Source of the DNA: a virus
Strand: one strand, 5' to 3'
DNA length: 34,277 bases
UHGV virus genome: UHGV-0115522
This document shows, in pieces, positions 4,772 through 16,617 of the stretch. The notes below the pieces were generated by a model that had not been told where the DNA came from, ran no database searches, and saw nothing but the letters and a program-made list of their open reading frames with translations. The position numbers and the translations under genes were made by a program. The number at the start of each line of letters is the position of its first letter. The first letter of the stretch is position 1.

Positions 4772-5461
4772 TCATAAATCTGATAGCCACTTACTATCTA
4801 TGGACTCAATCTCCGTCAGCGGAATTGATGGGAAAAAATATCCCTGAGCGCCCCATAGCCCTATCCCTTTTGATAACTTATGGCAATCAATGTTTTCGAC
4901 GCCTTCAGCGATGATATTCGGACATAACTTTTTTAAATTGCTAATAATGACATCAAAATGAGGCTTAATCATATGCTCTTGAAAAAATGACTTATCAAGT
5001 TTTATTGCATGATATTTATTTTTAATTAATGCTTTCATGGTGGCGTTACCACTTCCAAAATCATCAAGCCAAACATTATCTGTCAAAGTCAGTAGAAAGG
5101 ATATGATGTAATCCTCATCGCTTAAATCAGGATAGTTTTCTGATATCTCAATCGCTATAAATTTATTGTTTATTAGTAGTTCTTGAATTTGTTTATTGCC
5201 ATATATATATAAACAGGTATCATAATCTGCATTGATAGAGCATAATATATTATGGCATTCAAAAAAATACTTATACTTGATTATTGTGTTAAGTTGAGAT
5301 TTTAGCAAGTTAATCTTCATCTTGCTTGTAAACATACCTAATACTTTCTGAGTAGAAAGAATAGCCCCCTCGTTGGAATAAAATCTGCTCAACACTTCCA
5401 CTGCTATCAACTTGTTAGTGCTTGTGGAAATGATTGGTTCTACTATGTAGATAACTTCCAT
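4772..5461 (-). CDS. Standalone EAL-domain protein, predicted c-di-GMP phosphodiesterase
   Basis: 229 aa with EAL signature positions in order: EVL (in AVEVLSRF), EISE, DDFGSGNAT, IKLDKSF, IIAEGVEN, AQGYFF. GAGGG-type SD upstream of ATG. Gene is visibly AT-rich relative to the P1-like flanks. Confidence 0.8.
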   Translation of the reverse strand: MEVIYIVEPIISTSTNKLIAVEVLSRFYSNEGAILSTQKVLGMFTSKMKINLLKSQLNTIIKYKYFFECHNILCSINADYDTCLYIYGNKQIQELLINNKFIAIEISENYPDLSDEDYIISFLLTLTDNVWLDDFGSGNATMKALIKNKYHAIKLDKSFFQEHMIKPHFDVIISNLKKLCPNIIAEGVENIDCHKLSKGIGLWGAQGYFFPSIPLTEIESIDSKWLSDL

Positions 5462-5683
5462 GCTCCCACCCTCTATTTTTAAATTGGTTGGCTTTAGCAG
5501 ATAAAGTGCCCTTTATATTTACAGGGGTTACACACTATGTCAATTTATTTATCTGTAGTGAAATTGATAAAAATTAAATAATAAAAAGCAGCAACTATGA
5601 CACAAATCAATATTTTTATTTTTTGCACAACTTCTTGATTTCAGTGCTGCTGTATCTCTATTCTTGTTCAAAGCCTCTTTAGA

Positions 5684-6417
5684 ATGGTGGTAGCTATGTC
5701 AGGAGTCTGTTACTTCATCCTTATAAAGAAACCGATAAATTTTCAATTTCTTAAGGATTTCTTAATATTAAATTATGGTGATGTGCTGTTGCTTAAACAT
5801 TCTGAACGCGAATTCTTACAAACCTATTCAGATAAATATATCGAATTCGAACTTAATGATAGTGCTGTAAGAAACTATTTATCTTGTCACAATCACCAAG
5901 GGAAGCAACTTCTGGATAAATGCCCACATTTGCTAAAAAAGTCTTTTGCTTATCCTGATTTATTAATCAGGATGATCGATAATATAAGTGACCAGAATCA
6001 TATACATCCTGATTTTAAGGATGCTTTAACTTTTTCATTACTTTCAATTTTTAGTGATGTTGACAACCTTAGAGCTTTTCTTAAGTCTGGTATGCCTACT
6101 TTCTCAGGGAAAGTACGCAGCATATTTCTTTCAGATGTATCTAAACATTGGAAACTAAGAGACTTAACTGATTATCTATACATAGTGAGAGTTTAATAAA
6201 GAAAAAACTCTTATTAGAAAACACCTCCTTCAGTAAGTTATTACTTGATACACGAATGGCTTTTGCTATTAAATTACTAAAGCAAACCCGCCCCCTCAAA
6301 CAAGTATCAAAAAGTTGTGGTTTTAGTAGCATATCGTACTTTGTGTGCCTATTTAGGCAGTATTATAATTGTACACCATGTGAATATGTAAAACATCAGT
6401 TATCATCTGGGAAATAA
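5684..6417 (+). pseudogene. AraC-family transcriptional regulator interrupted by a frameshift
   Basis: Frame 2 ORF (5684-6196) ends with the first helix of an AraC HTH (KHWKLRDLTDYLYI). Frame 1 continues from about 6172 to stop 6415-6417 with the rest of the domain (SESLIKKKLL...LDTRMAFAIKLLKQTRPLKQVSKSCGFSSISYF...YYNCTPCEYVKHQ). The shift is near 6181-6190 and not in a homopolymer. Confidence 0.55.
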
Positions 6418-7174: not shown

Positions 7175-10100
7175 TTATGCGTATTGTTGGATGACGGCCA
7201 GAACGTCCGCCACGTTGTGTTTTGTCTCGATAATCCACCAGTTGCCCGGGAAATCGCTGTTCTTCGCCTTCGCTGGCAGCCAGCGAGCGCCGAATTTTTT
7301 CTTGATTGCGTCTTTAGCACGGAAAAGAACGCCTTTCATGCCGGACGCCTCCTGAAGCCCAAATACCTCACCAGCTGCGAATTTTGGTGCGTACATCATC
7401 TTCAGGTCGGCGGTGGATACGCGATAATTCAGACCAAGAGACTGAGCTATGCTGGTGGCATCACCCTGTATTGATGATAACTCTTCTTGTTTCTCGTTTC
7501 TGGCGGCAATTTCTTCCTCCGTGATGTTGCCTAGGGCCAGGTTTATCCGATCAGCGTCGGCCTGTTTCTCTTCATCGGTGCGCCCGGCAAGAACCGTGTT
7601 AATTCTCTGCAATATCTCAACATGATTCTTGCGCATGCTAAGCAATTCCGGCGTAACCTCGTTAAGGTCCACCAGCCCAAGGATGGCAAGGTCGGAAAAC
7701 ATTGATACCAGGTTGTAGGTCATGCGATAGCTGAGTTGCCCATAGGCTGATGGCAACTGCACCGCATCCATTTGATAGGCATCCATAAATTTAGAGCCGT
7801 CGTTTACGACATCCGCAATTGCCGGTGTGATTTTCCCTGTGGTGGCGACCTCCCTGATTGCTGTTACCCACGATTGAGTCAGCGCGGCGACTGCATGATT
7901 CAGATTGGCTTTCCGTTCTGCTGCAATACGCGCGCTTGCAGCGTCCATTGCCTGCTTGATCTCGTCTTTATTGCTGTAAATGCCAATGGTGCCAAACTGT
8001 GCTGTGGTGATCTCATAATCTGACGCCCGGAACTCATGGGTACCGAAAATGGCATTGGTGACCTCAAGTTCAGAATCCCCGTTACGAGTAGCCCCCTGGC
8101 TTGTTTTCTCCGGCATTCTGGCGATCGCATCCGCTATTTTCTCCTGAATTGCTTCAGGGGATAGCGTATCTCCGTATGACGCGATTACTTCGCCATAATT
8201 GGAGCCAAACAGTTCAGTCAGGAATACTTCTGCCAAACGGACCTGGCGGTTATTCCCTTCCGACATCATACCAAGCACCCATTTTGCAATTGACGACTTC
8301 AGCGCGCCGTCACGGCGATCCTGGTAAACCGCATGCTTCAGTGGGTCCGTATAGGTACCAACAAAATCAATGCTATAGCCTGACTCTGTAGTCTGAACGC
8401 CGTATGAGTCAGTGATTTTGATCATGCCGCGCTGCTGGAAACGGTAGAAATCGTCACAGGAAATGATGTCGTTAATCCCGGCGATGGAGACGCCACCACT
8501 GATTTTCTGCATAACAGCATCTTCATCGGGAGTTACATCCACCTGTTTATCCAGCGTCTTCACATCCCAGTTACCCGATTTGGTGCCTTTGAAGGTAAAG
8601 ATGATCTCCACGTCTGCGCGCTGGCTGTCGAAGTCCAGCGACTTAATGCGAACGATATCACCGGCACAATCGTAGTATTGGCCTACACGCCATGAGCGAT
8701 CGCCGATAACAAGGAACTCATTCGCATGGTTAACCAGATCAGGATCAACATCCAGAATGCCTTTATTTATTGCATCCTCCACCAGCGGGCGCAGGCGTTT
8801 GATATCCGTCGCGGCCTTCTGAGTACGGTTCAATAATTTCTCATAGCGGGAGATGGCTTGAGTGATATTAGCCTTGCGCTGAATGGCGCTTTTCAACGAC
8901 GCGCGATAATGTGCTAACAACGTACGGTCTGTGTGATGGACGCTACCCCAGCGGGCCTTCCAGTCTGCATTATCAGCTGCTTTGGCCATTACCGCCTGTT
9001 TAAATTTAGCTACCTCGGCGGTGGTCTTTTCAAGTTCCGCTTTACTTCGCTCTAATTCAGCGGTAAGAGCCGCAACATCCTCGCCAGCTGCATGTTGCGC
9101 CTTGATGTAGTTCTGAAGGTCGATAGCGGCCTGTTCTTTCTGGCGGGCGCGTTGCGCGGCTTTCGCCTTATCCATTTGAACCTGCATCATTGCCAGACGT
9201 TCGCCATCATCCTTAGCGGTATACATCTGCATTTCGATCATATCGTTGGCGTCGGCGTTCTCCATTTCTGACTTATCTGAACGGAGGATATCGGAGATCC
9301 AGCCTGCTTTACGCTTCAGCGTCTTCAGTCGGTATTCATCGAAAGAACCCTTGCCGCAGTAGTAATGAACGCGAACGCTTGCACGGTTGGAGCCAACTCG
9401 GGCACCGCGACCGTTACGCTGTGCGACACTGGCTGGTGTCCATGGCAACGTCAGATGATGGATGTCAGTCGTTCCTCGATGCAGGTTGATACCCACCTCT
9501 GCCTTTTTGTTGCAGATGATGATCGGAGTCCGGCCCTCCTGGAAGTCGGCTGCAATCTTTTCCAGACCGCCCAACGACATTTCATTTTGCTGCGCGATAT
9601 AGGCGTCATACAGAGCCATTTGCTCGTTGTATTTCGCTATCTGTGCATCTGTTGGTTCATCCGGTAACTCTTTCGGCGGTTTAACCGCTTTCAGTTTCTT
9701 ACCGGTTTTACCTGCCTCGGCAACCGTCTGAGCATTCAGGATCCTTACCTTTGAAGGTTCAAGGTTAAGAGCATTGCAGATAATGCGCTTGAGCTTCTGG
9801 TGCTGCGTTTTTTCGTCGGTGAAGATGATTTGCTTCCCTTCCGGGAAAAACTCCTTCAGCGTGGCAATCAGCTTCGCGTATTTGGGCGTAACGGGGTGAG
9901 TTACGGTCTGTTCGTCAATGCCAAACCTGGCCAGGCGCTTATTCACTTCCTGCTCGAACGCTTCCGGAACCTGCAACTGAATAAACTCGCCCTTATCTAT
10001 CAGGGAGTATTGCGATTGCTGCGTGATTGAATCATCACTGTCGTCGTCTTCGCTGGTGGCTTGTTTAGGCAAACTGTCCGCCAGCTGCTGCACCGCATCG

Positions 10101-11200
10101 GCGTACTCCGGCAGGAAACGATAGGTGATCCGGCGATAGTACAGGTCCATGTCAGTACATACGCGGTCCATATCCCTGATTATTGAGAAGATCGGACGGG
10201 CTTTCTCGTGCTCAATCACTCCGTCTTCATCGACCGAGGTCGTTACGCCATTGTTGGCTTTGGCCACCGCTTCCGCCTGCTGGCGTAATTCTTCATACGC
10301 CGCCAGTTGTTCTTCAGTAAGTGGTGCATCCTGCTGGTGTTCGTCCAGTTCCGGGATCTCCACGGTATCCTTAACGTCTTCCGCCGTTTTAAGCGTTGTC
10401 CAGCGATGGAATATGCCGCGCAGCGCATCAAGGTTTTCAAAGCCCACCAGCGCCATTTTTTCTTCAACTTCACCGCTGATTTTCTGTACCGTTTCCAGCC
10501 TGGTCTTGCCGAAGAATTTAACGAAGTCATCAGGACCGTAGATCCCCATCTTCTGCCAGTATTCCTTCGGCAGCACATGAGAAAGCATGTTGTATGCATC
10601 GATCGGGGTGTTAACGACTGGCGTTGCAGTCAGGAGAACCGGTCCGCGCCCACCATTCTTTTTCATCAGGTACGCGTTTTTAATTGCCATATCCCGCGCC
10701 GATTGCGCCACCGCGCTGGTGGGCAGATAGGCCAGTTGTGACGCTTCGCGACCATTTTTATAGCTATTGCGGTAGTTGTGACCTTCGTCAGCGATCACAC
10801 TATCGAAGCCCATATCCTCAAAGTACGGATACTTCTCTGCTTTTTCGGTACCGGTATCTGAATACTCCGACAATACCCGGCGACGCGCGGCCTCTTTGCG
10901 GTGGGAGTCGGAGTCCATTGCGCTGGCTACGCGCCCGGCGGCAACGAAGTCATAAAGCATATCCTGTGCATGCTCATCTACGGTGTCATCACGTAGCGGA
11001 GTGCGGGCGTATTGTTCTTTGGTAAACACGACTGCACGGTAATTTGAGTGCGGGATCGCGTTCATCCGCGCCGTGATAGTGGCTTCATCTGCCAGTTTTA
11101 GGGCATCGCGCATAACTGGAGTGCCATCAGTACCAAGAACAGGAGCACCTCCCACGCTAACGCGCGGGCCCCGAATCTCACCGTTCTGAAACCACAACAA
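7175..11200 (-). CDS. DarB-like superfamily-2 helicase, apparently missing its 5' portion
   Basis: 1341-aa ORF with helicase motif II (VIADEGHNY), motif III (LLTATPVVN) and motif VI (QRNGRGARVG), but no Walker A (GxGKT) in the 135 aa before DEGH. Frame closes at 11207-11209 just upstream of a TTG start. Long C-terminal extension. Confidence 0.65.
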   Translation of the reverse strand: MLWFQNGEIRGPRVSVGGAPVLGTDGTPVMRDALKLADEATITARMNAIPHSNYRAVVFTKEQYARTPLRDDTVDEHAQDMLYDFVAAGRVASAMDSDSHRKEAARRRVLSEYSDTGTEKAEKYPYFEDMGFDSVIADEGHNYRNSYKNGREASQLAYLPTSAVAQSARDMAIKNAYLMKKNGGRGPVLLTATPVVNTPIDAYNMLSHVLPKEYWQKMGIYGPDDFVKFFGKTRLETVQKISGEVEEKMALVGFENLDALRGIFHRWTTLKTAEDVKDTVEIPELDEHQQDAPLTEEQLAAYEELRQQAEAVAKANNGVTTSVDEDGVIEHEKARPIFSIIRDMDRVCTDMDLYYRRITYRFLPEYADAVQQLADSLPKQATSEDDDSDDSITQQSQYSLIDKGEFIQLQVPEAFEQEVNKRLARFGIDEQTVTHPVTPKYAKLIATLKEFFPEGKQIIFTDEKTQHQKLKRIICNALNLEPSKVRILNAQTVAEAGKTGKKLKAVKPPKELPDEPTDAQIAKYNEQMALYDAYIAQQNEMSLGGLEKIAADFQEGRTPIIICNKKAEVGINLHRGTTDIHHLTLPWTPASVAQRNGRGARVGSNRASVRVHYYCGKGSFDEYRLKTLKRKAGWISDILRSDKSEMENADANDMIEMQMYTAKDDGERLAMMQVQMDKAKAAQRARQKEQAAIDLQNYIKAQHAAGEDVAALTAELERSKAELEKTTAEVAKFKQAVMAKAADNADWKARWGSVHHTDRTLLAHYRASLKSAIQRKANITQAISRYEKLLNRTQKAATDIKRLRPLVEDAINKGILDVDPDLVNHANEFLVIGDRSWRVGQYYDCAGDIVRIKSLDFDSQRADVEIIFTFKGTKSGNWDVKTLDKQVDVTPDEDAVMQKISGGVSIAGINDIISCDDFYRFQQRGMIKITDSYGVQTTESGYSIDFVGTYTDPLKHAVYQDRRDGALKSSIAKWVLGMMSEGNNRQVRLAEVFLTELFGSNYGEVIASYGDTLSPEAIQEKIADAIARMPEKTSQGATRNGDSELEVTNAIFGTHEFRASDYEITTAQFGTIGIYSNKDEIKQAMDAASARIAAERKANLNHAVAALTQSWVTAIREVATTGKITPAIADVVNDGSKFMDAYQMDAVQLPSAYGQLSYRMTYNLVSMFSDLAILGLVDLNEVTPELLSMRKNHVEILQRINTVLAGRTDEEKQADADRINLALGNITEEEIAARNEKQEELSSIQGDATSIAQSLGLNYRVSTADLKMMYAPKFAAGEVFGLQEASGMKGVLFRAKDAIKKKFGARWLPAKAKNSDFPGNWWIIETKHNVADVLAVIQQYA

Positions 11201-11209
11201 AAAAAATCA

Positions 11210-11720
11210 GGAATAAAAAACACCACACAAACACAGCACTGTACCCCCCCTCATAACTGAAAAGCGCCGCCGCCCCCGCCCGAAGGGCGGGAACAACATC
11301 GCTTTTAATTATGAATGTTGTAAGTACATTGTCATCGCTGTCAGTCTTCTGGCTGGAAGTCCTCAGTACACGCTCGTAAGCGGCCCTCACGGCCCGCTAA
11401 CGCGGAGATACGCCCCGACTTCGGGTACACCCTCGTCGGGACCACTCCGACCGCGCATAAAGGCTCTGTCATGGCTGAAAACGGGTATGGCTTAGCAGGG
11501 CCGGGGGTGGGTAAGGTGAAATCTATCAGTCAGTACCGGCTTACGCCGGGCTTCGGCGGTTTTACTCCGGTATCATATGAAACAACAGAGTGCCGCCTTC
11601 CATGCCGCTGGCGCGGCATCAGGACAATTGAAGAGTGACGGCGCACATTAACATCAAACAGACTTGTTAAGCAGTCTTTCAGGGTGTAATCTGAAGACCT
11701 GTTAAATAGTCTCAGAGGTG
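11210..11720. other. GC-rich, hairpin-dense noncoding segment at the darB break
   Basis: No convincing ORF. Perfect hairpin cccgccc-gaag-ggcggg (about 11276-11292), cccgac/gtcggg (about 11414-11440), atgccgc-tggc-gcggcat (about 11592-11609) and a near-palindrome cagtctttcag/ctgaagacctg just upstream of stbD. Confidence 0.3.
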
Positions 11721-11724
11721 TGTT

Positions 11725-11976
11725 ATGCCCAGTATCATTTTGTCTGACACCAGTGCAAGCGTCAGTGAGCTGAAAAAAAATCCGATGGCAACTGTCAGTG
11801 CCGGAGAGGGGTATCCTGTTGCCATTCTTAACCGGAATCAGCCAGCATTCTACTGTGTCCCTGCTGAGCTCTATGAAAGAATGCTTGATGCCTTGGATGA
11901 CCAGGAGCTGGTAAAACTGGTTACTGAACGCAGCAGTCAGCCTCTGCATGATGTGGACCTGGACAGTTATTTATGA
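11725..11976 (+). CDS. stbD: RelB/StbD-family antitoxin
   Basis: 83 aa (MPSIILSDTSASVSELKKNPMATVSAGEGYPVAILNRNQPAFYCVPAELYERMLDALDDQELVKL...) matches plasmid StbD antitoxins from memory; overlaps the toxin gene by 4 nt (ATGA). Confidence 0.85.
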   Translation: MPSIILSDTSASVSELKKNPMATVSAGEGYPVAILNRNQPAFYCVPAELYERMLDALDDQELVKLVTERSSQPLHDVDLDSYL

Positions 11977-12260
11977 CTTATACAGTAAAATTCCGGGATG
12001 ATGCACTGAAAGAATGGCTCAGACTGGACAAGACCATTCAGCAGCAGTTCGCAAAAAAACTGAAAAAATGCAGTGAAAATCCTCATATAGCTTCTGCAAA
12101 ACTACGTGGATTAAAGGACTGCTATAAAATCAAACTTCGCGCATCAGGTTTTCGTCTGGTTTATCAGATTATTGATGATATGTTAATTATTGCGGTCGTC
12201 GCAGTAGGTAAACGTGAACGCAGCAACGTTTATCATCTCGCCAGTGAACGGATGAAATAA
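11973..12260 (+). CDS. stbE: RelE/StbE-family toxin (mRNA interferase)
   Basis: 95 aa (MTYTVKFRDDALKEWLRLDKTIQQQFAKKLKKCSENPHIASAKLRGLKDCYKIKLRASGFRLVYQIIDDMLIIAVVAVGKRERSNVY) with RelE/ParE-fold hallmarks; coupled to the antitoxin. Confidence 0.85.
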   Translation: MTYTVKFRDDALKEWLRLDKTIQQQFAKKLKKCSENPHIASAKLRGLKDCYKIKLRASGFRLVYQIIDDMLIIAVVAVGKRERSNVYHLASERMK

Positions 12261-13119
12261 TATCCTGGTCAGCACTCTTTCTTACCTGCTTCCATTTTTT
12301 CAGTGATTCTTTTCCTGCATGCAGAAAAAAAGCCTACCCTGTGGGCAGGCATAACAGACAATCGCACAGTCAGTGTTGAAATTAATGATGTCACGCATTA
12401 TACCCGGTGGATACACAAACCATCCCTGCAAATGCATTGGCATCCTAATCAACGTCTGAAACAACTGCAATGGCCGGACCTGTGATTTCAGAGAAAGTTA
12501 TTATGTTTATTGAATATAACCGAAGTGATAAATAAAAGTATTATCACCTTTAATATTTATGCTTATTGCGTGGTTTTATCTGGTTATATAAAGCACAGAT
12601 GTTCTTATTATTTTCTGAAAAATAACCATATGGATCGATTTCCCCCACCCAGCCGAAGCGGTTCGGCTCGTTCGGCGTATCGTCGACACTGAAGCGCTTA
12701 TCCATTTCGTTCCAGCGGTAAGAGTTGTCGCTGTCGCTGACGAATGCCATCGGGTCGCTAAACAGCGTGATCCGCCATGCGATCAAAAAGCGTAAGTGTT
12801 TCCGACAGACGAGCCGGTGAAAAAAGTGGTGTGTCTGGCAATACAGGCATCGTCCCCGAAATGGACGATGCCGTTGAAGGACTGGGGTATGGCAATAAGC
12901 CGCTTTATTATCGGATTCAGTGACCGCCTGGACGGTTACTTTTGAGAAAAGGCATTTACACACAATCCTAAACAGACTCCTATATTTCAGATTTTGTTAT
13001 CAACGCATTTCAAATCTCTTAGAAATCATTACTGTCGTCATATTTTCCGAGGCAGCTCACCACCTAACTATGTCTTATCAACAATATTTTGTGAAGGATA
13101 TTTATAATGTAAAGACACA

Positions 13120-16100
13120 TCAGAAACGATATTCCACACTCAACATGGCAGATGTATTATGGTATCCATGTTCTCCAAGTTGAATGCCTGCATCAGCCCG
13201 GAATGCTACTTCTGGTGTTATCATTCCCACAACACCACCATTTATTTCTCCGATATCACGCGCACCATCCTGGTATATACTTACACCATTCATACTGGTG
13301 CCGAAAACACGACTATTGTGCAACCAGTGTGCCTCCACAAATGGTCTGAACGGAACCGCATACCGCGTATTTTTACCGTTTTTGCTGGTAAGCCATGTTC
13401 TTGCTCCCAGGCGGGTGAGAATATTTCCGTTACCGGTATTTTCAATACTGGTTCCGTTACTTTCATGATATTTGTCTGATTTTACATTCATCCGGACAAC
13501 CTGAAGCTGCGGCTGAACATACCATTCATGACTTCCCTTGTAATTGTCGGTAAACTCTCCAGCCTTCCATGAATATCCTGCTTCCAGAGATACCGTAAAC
13601 CCTTTTGACTTCCATGACTCAGCAGGCAGCCGTTCTCCATTTATATGATTATCAAACCAGCTGTATTGCAGCCAGCTATCAAGATAAGAACCATTGTGTG
13701 TTTCATCATTGGCATACCATGTTGCATAAAGACCCGCTGTGTATCCATTCATTCTTCCTTCCGAATGGTATCCGGTGCTCAGGGCATTCGTACTGTTATT
13801 ATTATGACCATAGCCAGCCATCATACCTGTATGCCAGCGATCGGTACCATTCAGGCTCCACTGAGCTATATCTCCCCCTATTAACACAACGTAGCTATTC
13901 CCCCGGGTTCTCAGCTGACTACTGTTGTCACGCCAGCGATTATGTTTTCCTTTATTATACATCCAGATACCTGCTTCATTTTCTTCTCCTGTCATGTGGC
14001 TGATATACAACTCCTGTCCCTGTCGTTCATACAGATTCGTTACAAACAGATTATTTGCAGCAGCAATACTGGCAACATAGCTACCTGCCTCAGGACGCAA
14101 ATTATTATCATGGCTTTCCGGTACAGCTTCAGGTTGTGGTACAGGAATGTCTTTTCTGCTAATCAGATACCAGTTAGTGCTGTTAATCCCCTGACCACGT
14201 TTCAGTATGTAATCATAAGCTCCGGCTGTAATACGTTCCGTCTGAATGAATTCAGCATTATCAGCATTGCCACTGACGTGAATCACTTCAATCCCATTAA
14301 GTGTCTCTGCACCAGTACCACCGGCCTGAGTAACAGCGACACGGGTACGGCCACTGGCATTACCTTTAATCACCAGACGATCTGTTTTCGAATTGTCACC
14401 ACCTGTTTCTGTCTGGAGGAGAATAAGTCCATTTCTGCCAGTGTAATTCCCTCCGACAGTCAGTATATTACCCGGCATATATGTAGTGAGATCGACTATA
14501 CCACTATTGCTCAGATTTCCTGCAACGCCCCCAAACCCGGAGAGTTTGCCCTGCTCTTCAACAATGACCTGGTTACTGCCGAGCATCACCGGTGAATCTG
14601 CGTTCCCCAGTATCACTGTCCCCTGAATAATATCTGTCATCCCGGTCCATTTTGCGTTATCGCTAATGTTCAGTGCACCTGCTCCCGTCTTGCGAACATT
14701 ACCATAACCACTGATATTGTTGGTAAGCTGCCATGCTGATGTACTGTTCAGAGTTAATGTGCCATAGTTATCAACAAAGGCTGTCCCCAGATTATCAGCC
14801 GTGGATACAGCCAAATGAGCCCCCTTATTCACGGTAAAAACACCGGAAAAATTACGATTATTACCCGTTATATCAAGCATTCCCCCATTTATGTTCAGAG
14901 AACCATCCCCTGCAATAGTACCTGCAGATTCTCCTCCATTATTCAGTATCAGGCTTCCGCCATGAATGTTCAGCACAGAGCCTGCAGCCGTCAGTAGTTT
15001 GCTTATTGTCTGAGGATACCCATTCATATCCAGTTCTGCGCCACGGGATAAATATAAATACTCAGTCCGACCAAGAGCATCAGGTGCAGCAAGAATTAAT
15101 ACGCCAGATTTAACCTCTGTATTTCCTGTATAATTGTTTGTTGCAGAAAGTATAAGAGTACCATTACCTGATTTTGTCAGACTTTTGCCGTCCCAGCCAT
15201 CATATAATAAAGGTGAAAGATTATCGGAAAGAGAAACGCCTATGTTCAGAGTGGCATCTTTTTCTATATTAAAGGTTCCATATCCCATCCCTTTTGTATT
15301 ATTCCATCTCAGCATGGATATCAGTTTGTTATCGTCGTCATTTAAAGACGTATAAACATAACTTTCAGCACCTTCTGTCAGTAATGCATTGTATTGTACA
15401 ATGTGACTATTATCAGCGATCGAGATACCTGTGTCTGACGACAATAATGTGTAATAGTCCTGAGTCCAGTTCTTAATTGATGTGTCTATATTAAGCCATG
15501 AATCACTTTTTAATGTAATAGTATTTGCGTGAACATTAGCATTTCCTACAGACAGGTTCATAGATGCGTCTTCATCAATACTTATATTTCCGTTAAAAAT
15601 GGAGTTCTTGCCTGACAGATAAACAGATGAGCCATTCCCAATCATTAGCCCACCATTAATTGCTGTTGCGTTATTGATGTTTTTAATAATTAATTCATTT
15701 GTACCATTAACAGGTATACTAGCTAGTTTAATATCACCATTAATCACAGAATCTGAATAAATATCTAATGAATTATACCCGCCAGAAAAAATTATTGATG
15801 TATTATAAGCATCTTTTTGGCTATTATATAATCCTGAAAGATTACCATGATTACTAATATGGATATCTTCTCCATAAACAGAGCAACCACCGTCGGGGCC
15901 ATATCCCCCCTGAACAATACCGTTATTATTCAAAGTGATTTGATTTCCAGAAATAGCATCTCCCCCTTGTTTTATTCCATATCCTCCAGATATCATGTTG
16001 CCGTTAGTAATGAAAAGATTACTACCATTAATACCATCACCACCGTTTACGCCATTACCGCCCAATATTCCTCCGGAATTATGCACTGTAATATTGCTAC

Positions 16101-16617
16101 CGGTTACACCGGAACCACCTGTCCCACCTACATCATCACCTCCGTATATACTTCTGTAATTATCAACTATAATATCATCCCCGCTTAACCCTGCACCTCC
16201 GCTACTTCCTGAGCCACCAAGACCATTACCCCCATATACATTTCTGTAATTGTTTATAGATATTTTGTTGCCACTAACAGCAATTCCACCATTATATCCA
16301 TCGCCTCCCCAAACACTACCATTATTATTTAGCGTAAAGTTTTCACCGTAGACACCTGCACCACCGATTGATGTATTGCTTGTTCCTCCTTTGATGTTAA
16401 TACTGCTTTCAACAGATAGTATATTTTGAGTATAACTTGTTTTATACGGCACGCTGATATTAAGCGCCGCGTTTCCATCAACACCTGTAATACTCCTGGT
16501 TATACTTTCAGGTATACCATTACCATTCAGTTGTATTGTTTGCGCACCAGAAAAATGAGACTGCACAGAATAAATTATACTGACCAGAAATTGTAAAATT
16601 CGTATATTCTTATTCAT
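13120..16617 (-). CDS. Autotransporter (type Va) with AIDA/pertactin-like glycine-rich passenger and C-terminal beta-barrel
   Basis: 1165 aa. N-terminal signal peptide (MNKNIRILQFLVSIIYSVQSHFSGAQT), long passenger with reiterated GG-x-G-x-NG-type repeats, and a C-terminus ending ...SAMLSVEYRF typical of outer-membrane barrel closure. AT-rich. Confidence 0.85.
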   Translation of the reverse strand: MNKNIRILQFLVSIIYSVQSHFSGAQTIQLNGNGIPESITRSITGVDGNAALNISVPYKTSYTQNILSVESSINIKGGTSNTSIGGAGVYGENFTLNNNGSVWGGDGYNGGIAVSGNKISINNYRNVYGGNGLGGSGSSGGAGLSGDDIIVDNYRSIYGGDDVGGTGGSGVTGSNITVHNSGGILGGNGVNGGDGINGSNLFITNGNMISGGYGIKQGGDAISGNQITLNNNGIVQGGYGPDGGCSVYGEDIHISNHGNLSGLYNSQKDAYNTSIIFSGGYNSLDIYSDSVINGDIKLASIPVNGTNELIIKNINNATAINGGLMIGNGSSVYLSGKNSIFNGNISIDEDASMNLSVGNANVHANTITLKSDSWLNIDTSIKNWTQDYYTLLSSDTGISIADNSHIVQYNALLTEGAESYVYTSLNDDDNKLISMLRWNNTKGMGYGTFNIEKDATLNIGVSLSDNLSPLLYDGWDGKSLTKSGNGTLILSATNNYTGNTEVKSGVLILAAPDALGRTEYLYLSRGAELDMNGYPQTISKLLTAAGSVLNIHGGSLILNNGGESAGTIAGDGSLNINGGMLDITGNNRNFSGVFTVNKGAHLAVSTADNLGTAFVDNYGTLTLNSTSAWQLTNNISGYGNVRKTGAGALNISDNAKWTGMTDIIQGTVILGNADSPVMLGSNQVIVEEQGKLSGFGGVAGNLSNSGIVDLTTYMPGNILTVGGNYTGRNGLILLQTETGGDNSKTDRLVIKGNASGRTRVAVTQAGGTGAETLNGIEVIHVSGNADNAEFIQTERITAGAYDYILKRGQGINSTNWYLISRKDIPVPQPEAVPESHDNNLRPEAGSYVASIAAANNLFVTNLYERQGQELYISHMTGEENEAGIWMYNKGKHNRWRDNSSQLRTRGNSYVVLIGGDIAQWSLNGTDRWHTGMMAGYGHNNNSTNALSTGYHSEGRMNGYTAGLYATWYANDETHNGSYLDSWLQYSWFDNHINGERLPAESWKSKGFTVSLEAGYSWKAGEFTDNYKGSHEWYVQPQLQVVRMNVKSDKYHESNGTSIENTGNGNILTRLGARTWLTSKNGKNTRYAVPFRPFVEAHWLHNSRVFGTSMNGVSIYQDGARDIGEINGGVVGMITPEVAFRADAGIQLGEHGYHNTSAMLSVEYRF

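Follow-up and report, generated by a model that had tools for sequence, protein, structure and literature searches.

A probable orphan repA4 region upstream of the stbDE toxin–antitoxin genes of a P1-like phage-plasmid

What is the hairpin-forming, gene-free DNA that lies directly upstream of a toxin–antitoxin operon in the viral genome UHGV-0115522? The window (the whole stretch of DNA analysed, 34,277 nucleotides) is a P1-like phage-plasmid that encodes a Ref protein and a 343-amino-acid Cre-like integrase and shows homology to P1, P7 and SJ46 in PmgS/Ppp/PmgQ. Its gene-free gap at 11066–11724 (659 bp) separates the start of a minus-strand helicase-related gene (11065) from the ATG of the antitoxin gene stbD (11725). 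The first-pass annotation offered several identities for this segment: a mobile-element terminus, an oriT, a single-strand initiation region that arrived with stbDE, a small RNA or the toxin–antitoxin operator. Here we find that the gap holds two different parts, plasmid post-origin DNA (11144–11619) and the stbDE leader (11620–11724). The first is very probably an orphan remnant of the repA4 region of a plasmid replicon, which hitch-hiked into a P1-like phage-plasmid together with the toxin–antitoxin genes.

Composition of the gap upstream of stbDE

The gap and its flanking genes comprise the following features.

7175–11065, minus strand: SNF2 helicase-related gene, darB-like and part of the P1-like backbone, that has lost its 5′ end (by gene comparison)
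11143/11144, no strand: recombination junction between the phage-plasmid backbone and a plasmid-derived block (by split query)
11144–11619, plus strand (as if repA lay to the left): DNA that follows oriR in IncK/IncI-complex and IncFII replicons, the 'repA4 region', very probably present as an orphan copy (by homology)
11620–11724, plus strand: stbDE leader with two 18-nt near-palindromic repeats, presumed StbD/StbDE operators (by conservation)
11725–11976, plus strand: stbD, a Phd/YefM-type antitoxin gene
11973–12260, plus strand: stbE, a RelE/StbE toxin gene (TIGR02385 RelE_StbE; score 35.4 bits, cut-off 27.9)
About 12259: right-hand limit of the homology to IncK2/Z plasmids

That the segment holds no plausible ORF was borne out by an alignment of homologues. 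The small ORFs in the gap (55 amino acids on the plus strand, 11471–11638; 70 and 43 amino acids on the minus strand) are broken in relatives by non-triplet indels and lost start codons and were not kept as coding, and a mechanically called ORF of 1,341 amino acids that reaches 11200 reads on past the 11143/11144 junction into foreign DNA. A RepA4 small protein was likewise considered and rejected: the frame of the R100 repA4 gene meets a stop at 11187–11189 in the window, and indels break all frames in relatives. The description of the segment as GC-rich stands only in part. At 53.8% GC, 11210–11720 is above the window average of 46.1%, as is 11144–11619 (56.1%), with a maximum of 66% at 11350–11449; stbDE itself has 43.8%. 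This enrichment is modest and exists relative to the window only.

The left edge of the plasmid-derived part is sharp. When 11030–11260 was used as a query, bases 1–114 matched only methylase/helicase genes and bases 115–231 matched only post-origin DNA of IncK/IncI-type plasmids. The stretch 11030–11143 corresponds to the interior of a gene annotated as 'N-6 DNA methylase' in other plasmids, where relatives of the darB-like gene are intact. The junction is spanned in 133 plasmid records, and the same arrangement occurs in three IMG/VR contigs.

Homology to post-origin plasmid DNA

A megablast search with 11150–11760 against 72,556 plasmid records returned at least 5,000 matching records, nearly all of them without stbDE. 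Among the matches listed, 143 records were at least 99% identical over the whole query, and 4,499 were 90–95% identical, typically over 11244–11619 and in some cases over 11150–11619. The IncK plasmid Plm, whose repA ends at 1486, is 91–93% identical over 1854–2332 (megablast match 1860–2332), and IncFII/R100 is 92% identical over 11244–11619; in an IncFII plasmid with a repA end at 5528, the match falls at 6001–6377. Using a 67%-identical Citrobacter homologue as the query added at least 5,000 further records from Klebsiella, Enterobacter, Serratia, Edwardsiella and Pantoea. In the relatives examined, the homologue always lies about 0.4–0.55 kb downstream of an IncFII-family repA. A three-way alignment traces the homology from 11144, where it starts with GCACCTCCCAC, to 11619.

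We assessed conservation in an alignment of 15 homologues from plasmids of Escherichia, Salmonella, Klebsiella, Raoultella, Citrobacter, Enterobacter, Serratia and Edwardsiella, with identities to the window down to about 67%. A RepA-based search of species-representative genomes gave eight loci only, four of which supplied useful divergent homologues.

The position of this DNA relative to a replication origin is clearest in the IncFII reference. There, a DnaA box (TTATCCACA) lies at 5704, and oriR, which we take to be 188 bp long as in R1, would end at about 5891; given that assumed length, the window homology begins where the IncFII oriR ends. The 128-codon repA4 ORF of R100 starts with ATGCACCTCCC, at the first base that is homologous in the window. 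The IncFII reference also carries two perfect inverted ter sites, at 5935–5948 (minus strand) and 6071–6084 (plus strand), and a CAGTACCGG motif 399 bp beyond the oriR end, to the right of both. Judged by this homology, 11144–11619 is the repA4/ter/G-site region of these replicons, which is already known and not a new element. The repA4 region bears the ter sites, and NR1 and pEC958 require it in cis to be stably maintained, for the latter including evidence from a transposon-insertion screen (PMC4398462). Such a requirement is not expected to hold in the window, because repA and the origin are missing. About 480 bp long, the element recurs across a large fraction of enterobacterial plasmids, and in public records it is either unannotated or covered by spurious 'hypothetical proteins'. 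Recognizing it as the repA4 region guards against reading it as an oriT, a novel RNA or the end of a mobile element.

Hairpins in a GC-rich stretch of non-coding sequence beside a junction do invite such readings, as do a related sequence in the leading region of plasmid F, near its oriT, and the repA4 ORF that spans the region in R100. A single-stranded-DNA promoter of the Frpo type was tried and rejected: BLAST against the F leading region, including Frpo1 and Frpo2, gave only the hit near oriT, and the element resembles neither Frpo. An oriT is not supported by context, since in conjugative relatives the homologue adjoins repA and not oriT or relaxase genes. The left edge, a candidate mobile-element terminus, is the junction with the truncated gene, where the junction-spanning query showed no IS-type homology. 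A small RNA found no support in a scan of 10500–12800 with the Rfam 15 covariance models on both strands, which gave no match at E ≤ 1, and a promoter-like site on the minus strand (11335–11308) scored at chance level, with an unconserved −35 element. Together with the broken repA4 frame, these results make it extremely improbable that the segment is a Frpo-type promoter, an oriT, a mobile-element end, a small RNA or a RepA4 gene.

To the right of 11619 the picture changes. The leader carries two near-palindromic repeats, an AGAGG sequence resembling a Shine–Dalgarno element and the stbD start codon.

11660–11677: first 18-nt leader repeat, AGACTTGTTAAGCAGTCT
11695–11712: second 18-nt leader repeat, AGACCTGTTAAATAGTCT, at a spacing of 35 bp
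Before the ATG at 11725: Shine–Dalgarno-like AGAGG

The near-palindrome that had been noticed directly upstream of the antitoxin gene thus turns out to be two 18-nt copies, and both recur in other stbDE loci: the pattern AGAC(T/C)TGTTAA..GTC and the 35-bp spacing are kept in the IncK2/Z plasmid pTMSA1088 and in one IncFII plasmid. We presume, from this conservation, that 11620–11724 is the promoter/operator leader of stbDE, in the usual layout of type II toxin–antitoxin operators. The promoter scan passed no consensus sigma-70 promoter for stbDE, and the promoter position is therefore inferred. Folding of 11620–11730 is unexceptional against shuffled sequences (z = −0.3). The proposal of a toxin–antitoxin operator is supported for the last 70 bp or so, where the conserved repeats lie, and not for the rest of the interval.

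Could the whole interval nonetheless be a regulatory 5′ leader of stbDE, with promoter, operators and perhaps an attenuator, and without an identity of its own? It sits directly upstream of stbD, in IncK2/Z plasmids and some of the IncFII type it runs on into stbDE, and its last 70 bp or so contain the operator-like repeats. The distribution of the sequence contradicts this reading. Thousands of plasmids without stbDE carry the 376-bp core at 11244–11619 and have other genes, or nothing annotated, downstream of it, so that the segment is not simply the conserved leader of that operon. Homology to plasmids without stbDE ends exactly at 11619, and stbDE loci diverge over 11620–11655, where there is a 10-nt indel, before similarity resumes at the repeats. 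We regard a leader spanning the entire interval as highly improbable.

The ter site, strand-specific hairpins and candidate G-site

Within 11144–11619, the alignment and folding point to four elements in the order expected of a repA4 region.

11251–11314, minus strand: hairpin H1, with outer stem TCATAA/TTATGA, then AAAAGCG/CGCTTTT and a top of CCCGCCC-GAA-GGGCGGG (by folding and covariation)
11308–11330, plus strand: Tus-type ter site, homologue of R1/R100 terRR, with G6 at 11313 (by consensus match and homologues)
11371–11455, minus strand: twin-hairpin block, 11375–11402 and 11403–11449, closed by CGC/GCG (by folding and near-invariance)
11484–11619, minus strand: probable primase-dependent priming signal, the candidate G-site (by position and literature)

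The ter site matches the consensus GNRNGTTGTAAYKA at 13 of 14 bases (11313–11326) and has G6. The polarity and the core of ter sites have been defined (PMC10331603; PMC8347550): the core comprises positions 6 and 8–18, and changes within it reduce Tus binding (PMC8347550). In the window C6 is a minus-strand base, and a rightward fork copies that strand as its leading-strand template, so the site is predicted to be oriented such that it would arrest rightward forks, those heading towards stbDE and higher coordinates. Of 15 relatives, 13 keep GTTGTAACTA, and the window has GTTGTAAGTA, with a C-to-G change at core position 17 (11324). Over the 476 nt of the homologous segment the window carries 22 private substitutions; at that rate, one private change among the 12 core positions is expected by chance in about 43% of cases, and the change is compatible with relaxed constraint and is not evidence of selection. 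This departure of an orphan copy from the consensus core may be of interest to replication specialists. The window and its IncK-type relatives have a single ter site, whereas IncFII has an inverted pair; the second, inverted site (terRL) is absent from the IncK-type left part, and so also from the window.

Hairpin H1 overlaps the ter site. Tested against 200 dinucleotide shuffles, the fold of 11240–11340 has z-scores of −3.3 (plus strand) and −4.3 (minus strand), with 0–1 of 200 shuffles as good. The consensus structure has 28 pairs and −38.8 kcal/mol on the minus strand versus 19 pairs and −24.4 kcal/mol on the plus strand, because a run of G–U/G–T pairs on the minus strand becomes A–C mismatches on the other; only on the minus strand is the stem continuous. 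Covariation supports the fold: over 14 distinct sequences, 98.5% of cells are paired, versus 39–58% when the partners are slid, and five pairs show compensatory double changes, values that 0 of 500 shuffles reached. The outer stem overlaps ter positions 1–7, which take in the non-permissive face, and covaries with them. These results uphold the earlier remark that the segment contains several hairpins, since 11240–11340 beats its shuffles and compensatory pairs occur both in 11251–11314 and in a hairpin at 11602–11619.

On the minus strand, H1 consists of an 18-bp stem followed by TTTTCAG, an arrangement that resembles a terminator, and H1 may act as a transcription terminator. A consensus-model scan for promoters and terminators yielded a single site resembling each, which does not exceed the yield from shuffled sequences. 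A strand-specific, covarying hairpin at the non-permissive end of a ter site may also interest replication specialists.

The twin-hairpin block is nearly invariant. Its 18-mer GCGGAGATACGCCCCGAC is exact in 17 of 25 loci, a set that includes near-identical copies of the window, and it too favours the minus strand (−37.7 versus −24.1 kcal/mol on the plus strand). The surrounding segment, 11340–11480, folds on the minus strand with z = −2.2 (4 of 200 shuffles as good).

The fourth element, the probable priming signal, contains several short motifs.

11487–11500: TATGG..GCAGG motif
11527–11535: CAGTCAGTA, which reads TACTGACTG on the minus strand
11544–11558: hairpin CGCCG/CGGCG
11573–11580: palindrome TCATATGA
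11602–11619: hairpin ATGCCGC-TGGC-GCGGCAT, with compensatory pairs

Read on the minus strand, hairpins at 11534–11619 are followed by TACTGACTG. The equivalent motif in the IncFII reference is the CAGTACCGG located 399 bp beyond oriR. Three of the seven pairs of the 11602–11619 hairpin are compensatory, and the fold of 11500–11625 (z of about −1.5) is not significant by energy alone. A homologue of the block at 11484–11619, 68% identical to it, lies in the leading region of F, near oriT between a DUF932 gene and the transglycosylase gene, on the transferred strand. For R1, work by Masai and Arai in 1989 and by Bernander et al. in 1992 reportedly gave an oriR of 188 bp and, about 400 bp downstream of it, a G-site at which primase alone starts the leading strand. 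Position, the F homologue and this literature together suggest that 11484–11619 is the probable G-site, an assignment weaker than the homology itself. The CTG expected as a start trinucleotide for DnaG is missing from several divergent homologues in the alignment, so that any exact placing of the priming site, and even the choice of block for the G-site, is tentative; the invariant twin hairpins could themselves belong to the G-site or form another signal besides it. Similarity to the complementary-strand origin of phage G4 was at chance, with a best local score of 18–19 against a shuffled mean of 18.2.

These elements can be placed in the replication cycle of a native replicon. RepA would open oriR, and the helicase would travel away from repA along the plus strand, leaving the displaced minus strand single-stranded from oriR to the start site until the fork returns. 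Primase would begin the leading strand on this minus strand at the G-site, about 400 bp downstream, and Tus bound at ter would halt the fork after one circuit, thereby preventing over-replication. The conserved hairpins would then be structures of the displaced strand. By our strand reasoning, the R1 model predicts the minus-strand preference of H1 and the twin-hairpin block, and the strand-specific covariation of a hairpin that overlaps ter fits the long-standing view of a single-stranded stretch between oriR and the G-site. In R1, terRL and terRR lie between the minimal oriR and the leading-strand start (PMC10331603), and the pair enforces unidirectional replication and halts the fork after one round (PMC10331603; PMC4999828). 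The suggestion that a single-strand initiation region came in along with stbDE was essentially right: the segment is the post-oriR region where the R1 leading strand starts, and in IncK2/Z plasmids and part of the IncFII plasmids it forms one uninterrupted stretch with stbDE.

We further propose, tentatively and as a possibility that we hold to be doubtful, that H1 and the twin-hairpin block are structures with a so far uncharacterised function, which the displaced strand (the leading-strand template) adopts during replication of the IncFII/IncI type. If so, H1 could modulate formation of the Tus lock or, as a leftward terminator, shield the origin, and the twin-hairpin block could serve as a second priming or protein-recognition signal.

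Orphan state and comparison with known systems

No cognate IncFII/IncK-type RepA is encoded in the window (best tblastn E = 0.39), and a minimal origin is missing as well. Replication should therefore not start from the fragment, which for the same reason is best described as an orphan remnant. The block shared with IncK2/Z plasmids runs from 11145 to 12259 and unites the repA4 region with stbD, stbE and their leader; some IncFII plasmids show this arrangement too. A block of about 1.1 kb of IncK/Z type would thus have been joined to the truncated darB-like gene, and the junction would be the recombination scar left when a P1-like phage-plasmid took a toxin–antitoxin module from an IncK/Z- or IncF-type replicon. 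Outside the P1-like lineage, we found no donor closer than about 93% identity for the core or 88% with stbDE included; a search for a closer donor of the stbDE–autotransporter block gave IS-interrupted relatives only. Further orphan copies exist: one is flanked by IS110 and IS26 on an IncR plasmid, and another lies in a viral contig beside an IS66-family element.

Given the absence of repA and origin, the fragment is most likely without function in the phage-plasmid, a passive passenger that would be kept through its linkage to the stbDE addiction module. An alternative that we consider unlikely is that it was retained because it still works, as an entry or restart site for primase on the minus strand, as a transcription insulator or as a patch of about 0.4 kb of homology for cointegration with IncF/IncI plasmids, which are very common. 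As an insulator, H1 could stop leftward transcripts before they reach the truncated darB-like gene, or stop rightward read-through; its 18-bp minus-strand stem and the TTTTCAG that follows would suit such a role, and the 92% identity of the core to thousands of IncF plasmids would suit a homology patch. The pattern of substitutions also lends this alternative something: none of the window-private changes falls in 11508–11619, the last 112 nt, so this stretch may have retained a function, and the twin-hairpin block has just one. Yet few private changes are expected in any 100-nt block at 22 per 476 nt, and their absence weighs little because most of the divergence probably predates capture. The ter core, an invariant feature of native copies, is the very element that is mutated in the window. 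Fixation of the same junction form in the plasmid records and viral contigs noted above is explained by linkage to stbDE. Passive carriage with stbDE remains the reading that we prefer.

Like Frpo1 and Frpo2 of F, the orphan copy is hairpin-forming, non-coding plasmid DNA that would act in single-stranded form. It shares no sequence similarity with them, however, and the Frpo elements lie upstream of early leading-region genes and engage RNA polymerase, whereas the repA4 region lies downstream of the vegetative origin and would engage primase. The candidate G-site recalls the phage G4 origin in having minus-strand stem-loops 5′ of a TACTG motif (...GCCGCCGTCCCTACTG in G4, ...GCGTAAGCCGGTACTGACTG in the window) and an adjacent hairpin with a GNAA-type loop, although the sequence similarity is not significant and the CTG is unconserved in divergent plasmid homologues.

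The ter site resembles E. coli Tus/ter sites in its 13 of 14 consensus bases and its G6, and differs from them at core position 17 (G for C); it lies in a phage-plasmid with no associated unidirectional origin. The repA4 region of R100/NR1 and R1 has the same order of hairpin, ter, twin hairpins and G-site-like block about 400 bp past oriR. Unlike in R100 and R1, the copy in the window is detached from repA and oriR, its repA4 frame is closed and its left 100 bp are of the IncK/IncI type, without terRL. Comparable in gene order are IncK2/Z and IncFII plasmids such as pTMSA1088, p10907_2 and pEntH10407, the last of which is arranged repA1–repA4–stbD–stbE (PMC2762410). These plasmids retain an initiator gene and origin upstream, both of which the window lacks, and share with it a contiguous repA4 region, leader, stbD and stbE at 86–88% identity over 11145–12259.

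The left edge and the cargo

The 1341-aa ORF called mechanically at window 7175-11200 (minus strand) is a chimera. The true helicase-related gene within it is a 5′-truncated darB-like methylase/helicase whose own sequence stops at 11143, and the ORF extends to 11200 only because its reading frame enters the plasmid-derived fragment. On the far side, beyond stbDE and an intervening stretch (12260-13120), lies an autotransporter gene of 1165 aa (13120-16617, minus strand). The linkage of stbE to the autotransporter is seen again in 172 plasmid records, one of them a conjugative IncFIB/FII/K2Z plasmid with stbD interrupted by IS66. The captured cargo may thus extend beyond the 1.1-kb block. Upstream, the window's cargo includes passengers that are unusual for a P1-like element:

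43-861, methyl-accepting chemotaxis-like ORF, truncated
4772-5461, EAL-domain c-di-GMP phosphodiesterase

The ter site and its hairpin

At the Tus-type ter site (11308-11330), the core in the window (base 11324) reads GTTGTAAGTA, a variant shared by all three IMG/VR contigs with the same junction; 13 of 15 homologues keep GTTGTAACTA. The outer stem of H1, the long conserved hairpin at 11251-11314, covaries with ter positions 1-7 (11308-11314), being TCATAA/TTATGA in one group of homologues and CCACCA/TGATGG in another, indicating that the conserved single-strand structure takes in the non-permissive end of ter.

Orphan copies and indels in the repA4 region

The repA4 region, the post-oriR DNA of IncK/IncI-complex and IncFII replicons, also occurs without an adjacent repA at two further loci.

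Additional orphan repA4 regions
L019 1501-1883, pN20520NDM (IncR), between IS110 and IS26
L029 11649-12024, viral contig, adjoining an IS66-family element, followed by tir and pemIK

Large indels are tolerated between the conserved blocks of this region. A Klebsiella IncFII-type plasmid (L010 4073-4403) carries an insertion of about 190 nt that duplicates the G-site-like block, and an Escherichia sp. plasmid (L009 3930-4110) one of about 160 nt immediately after ter.

The probable G-site block and its counterpart in F

In some public records the G-site region (window 11471-11638) is annotated with short 'hypothetical proteins'; indels in relatives argue against their being genes.

Examples of publicly annotated 'hypothetical proteins' over the G-site region
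Plm (IncK) 2184-2399
pTMSA1088 (IncK2/Z) 2250-2441

The probable priming block itself (11484-11619) has a homologue of 68% identity in the leading region of F, near oriT (L002 15392-15532; F plasmid 65391-65531), located on the transferred strand. Common to both are GGGCTTCGGC, TCATATGA, CCTTCCATGCCGC....GCGGCAT and the 9-mer CAGTCAGTA. This F homologue probably corresponds to one of the ssi signals already published for F.
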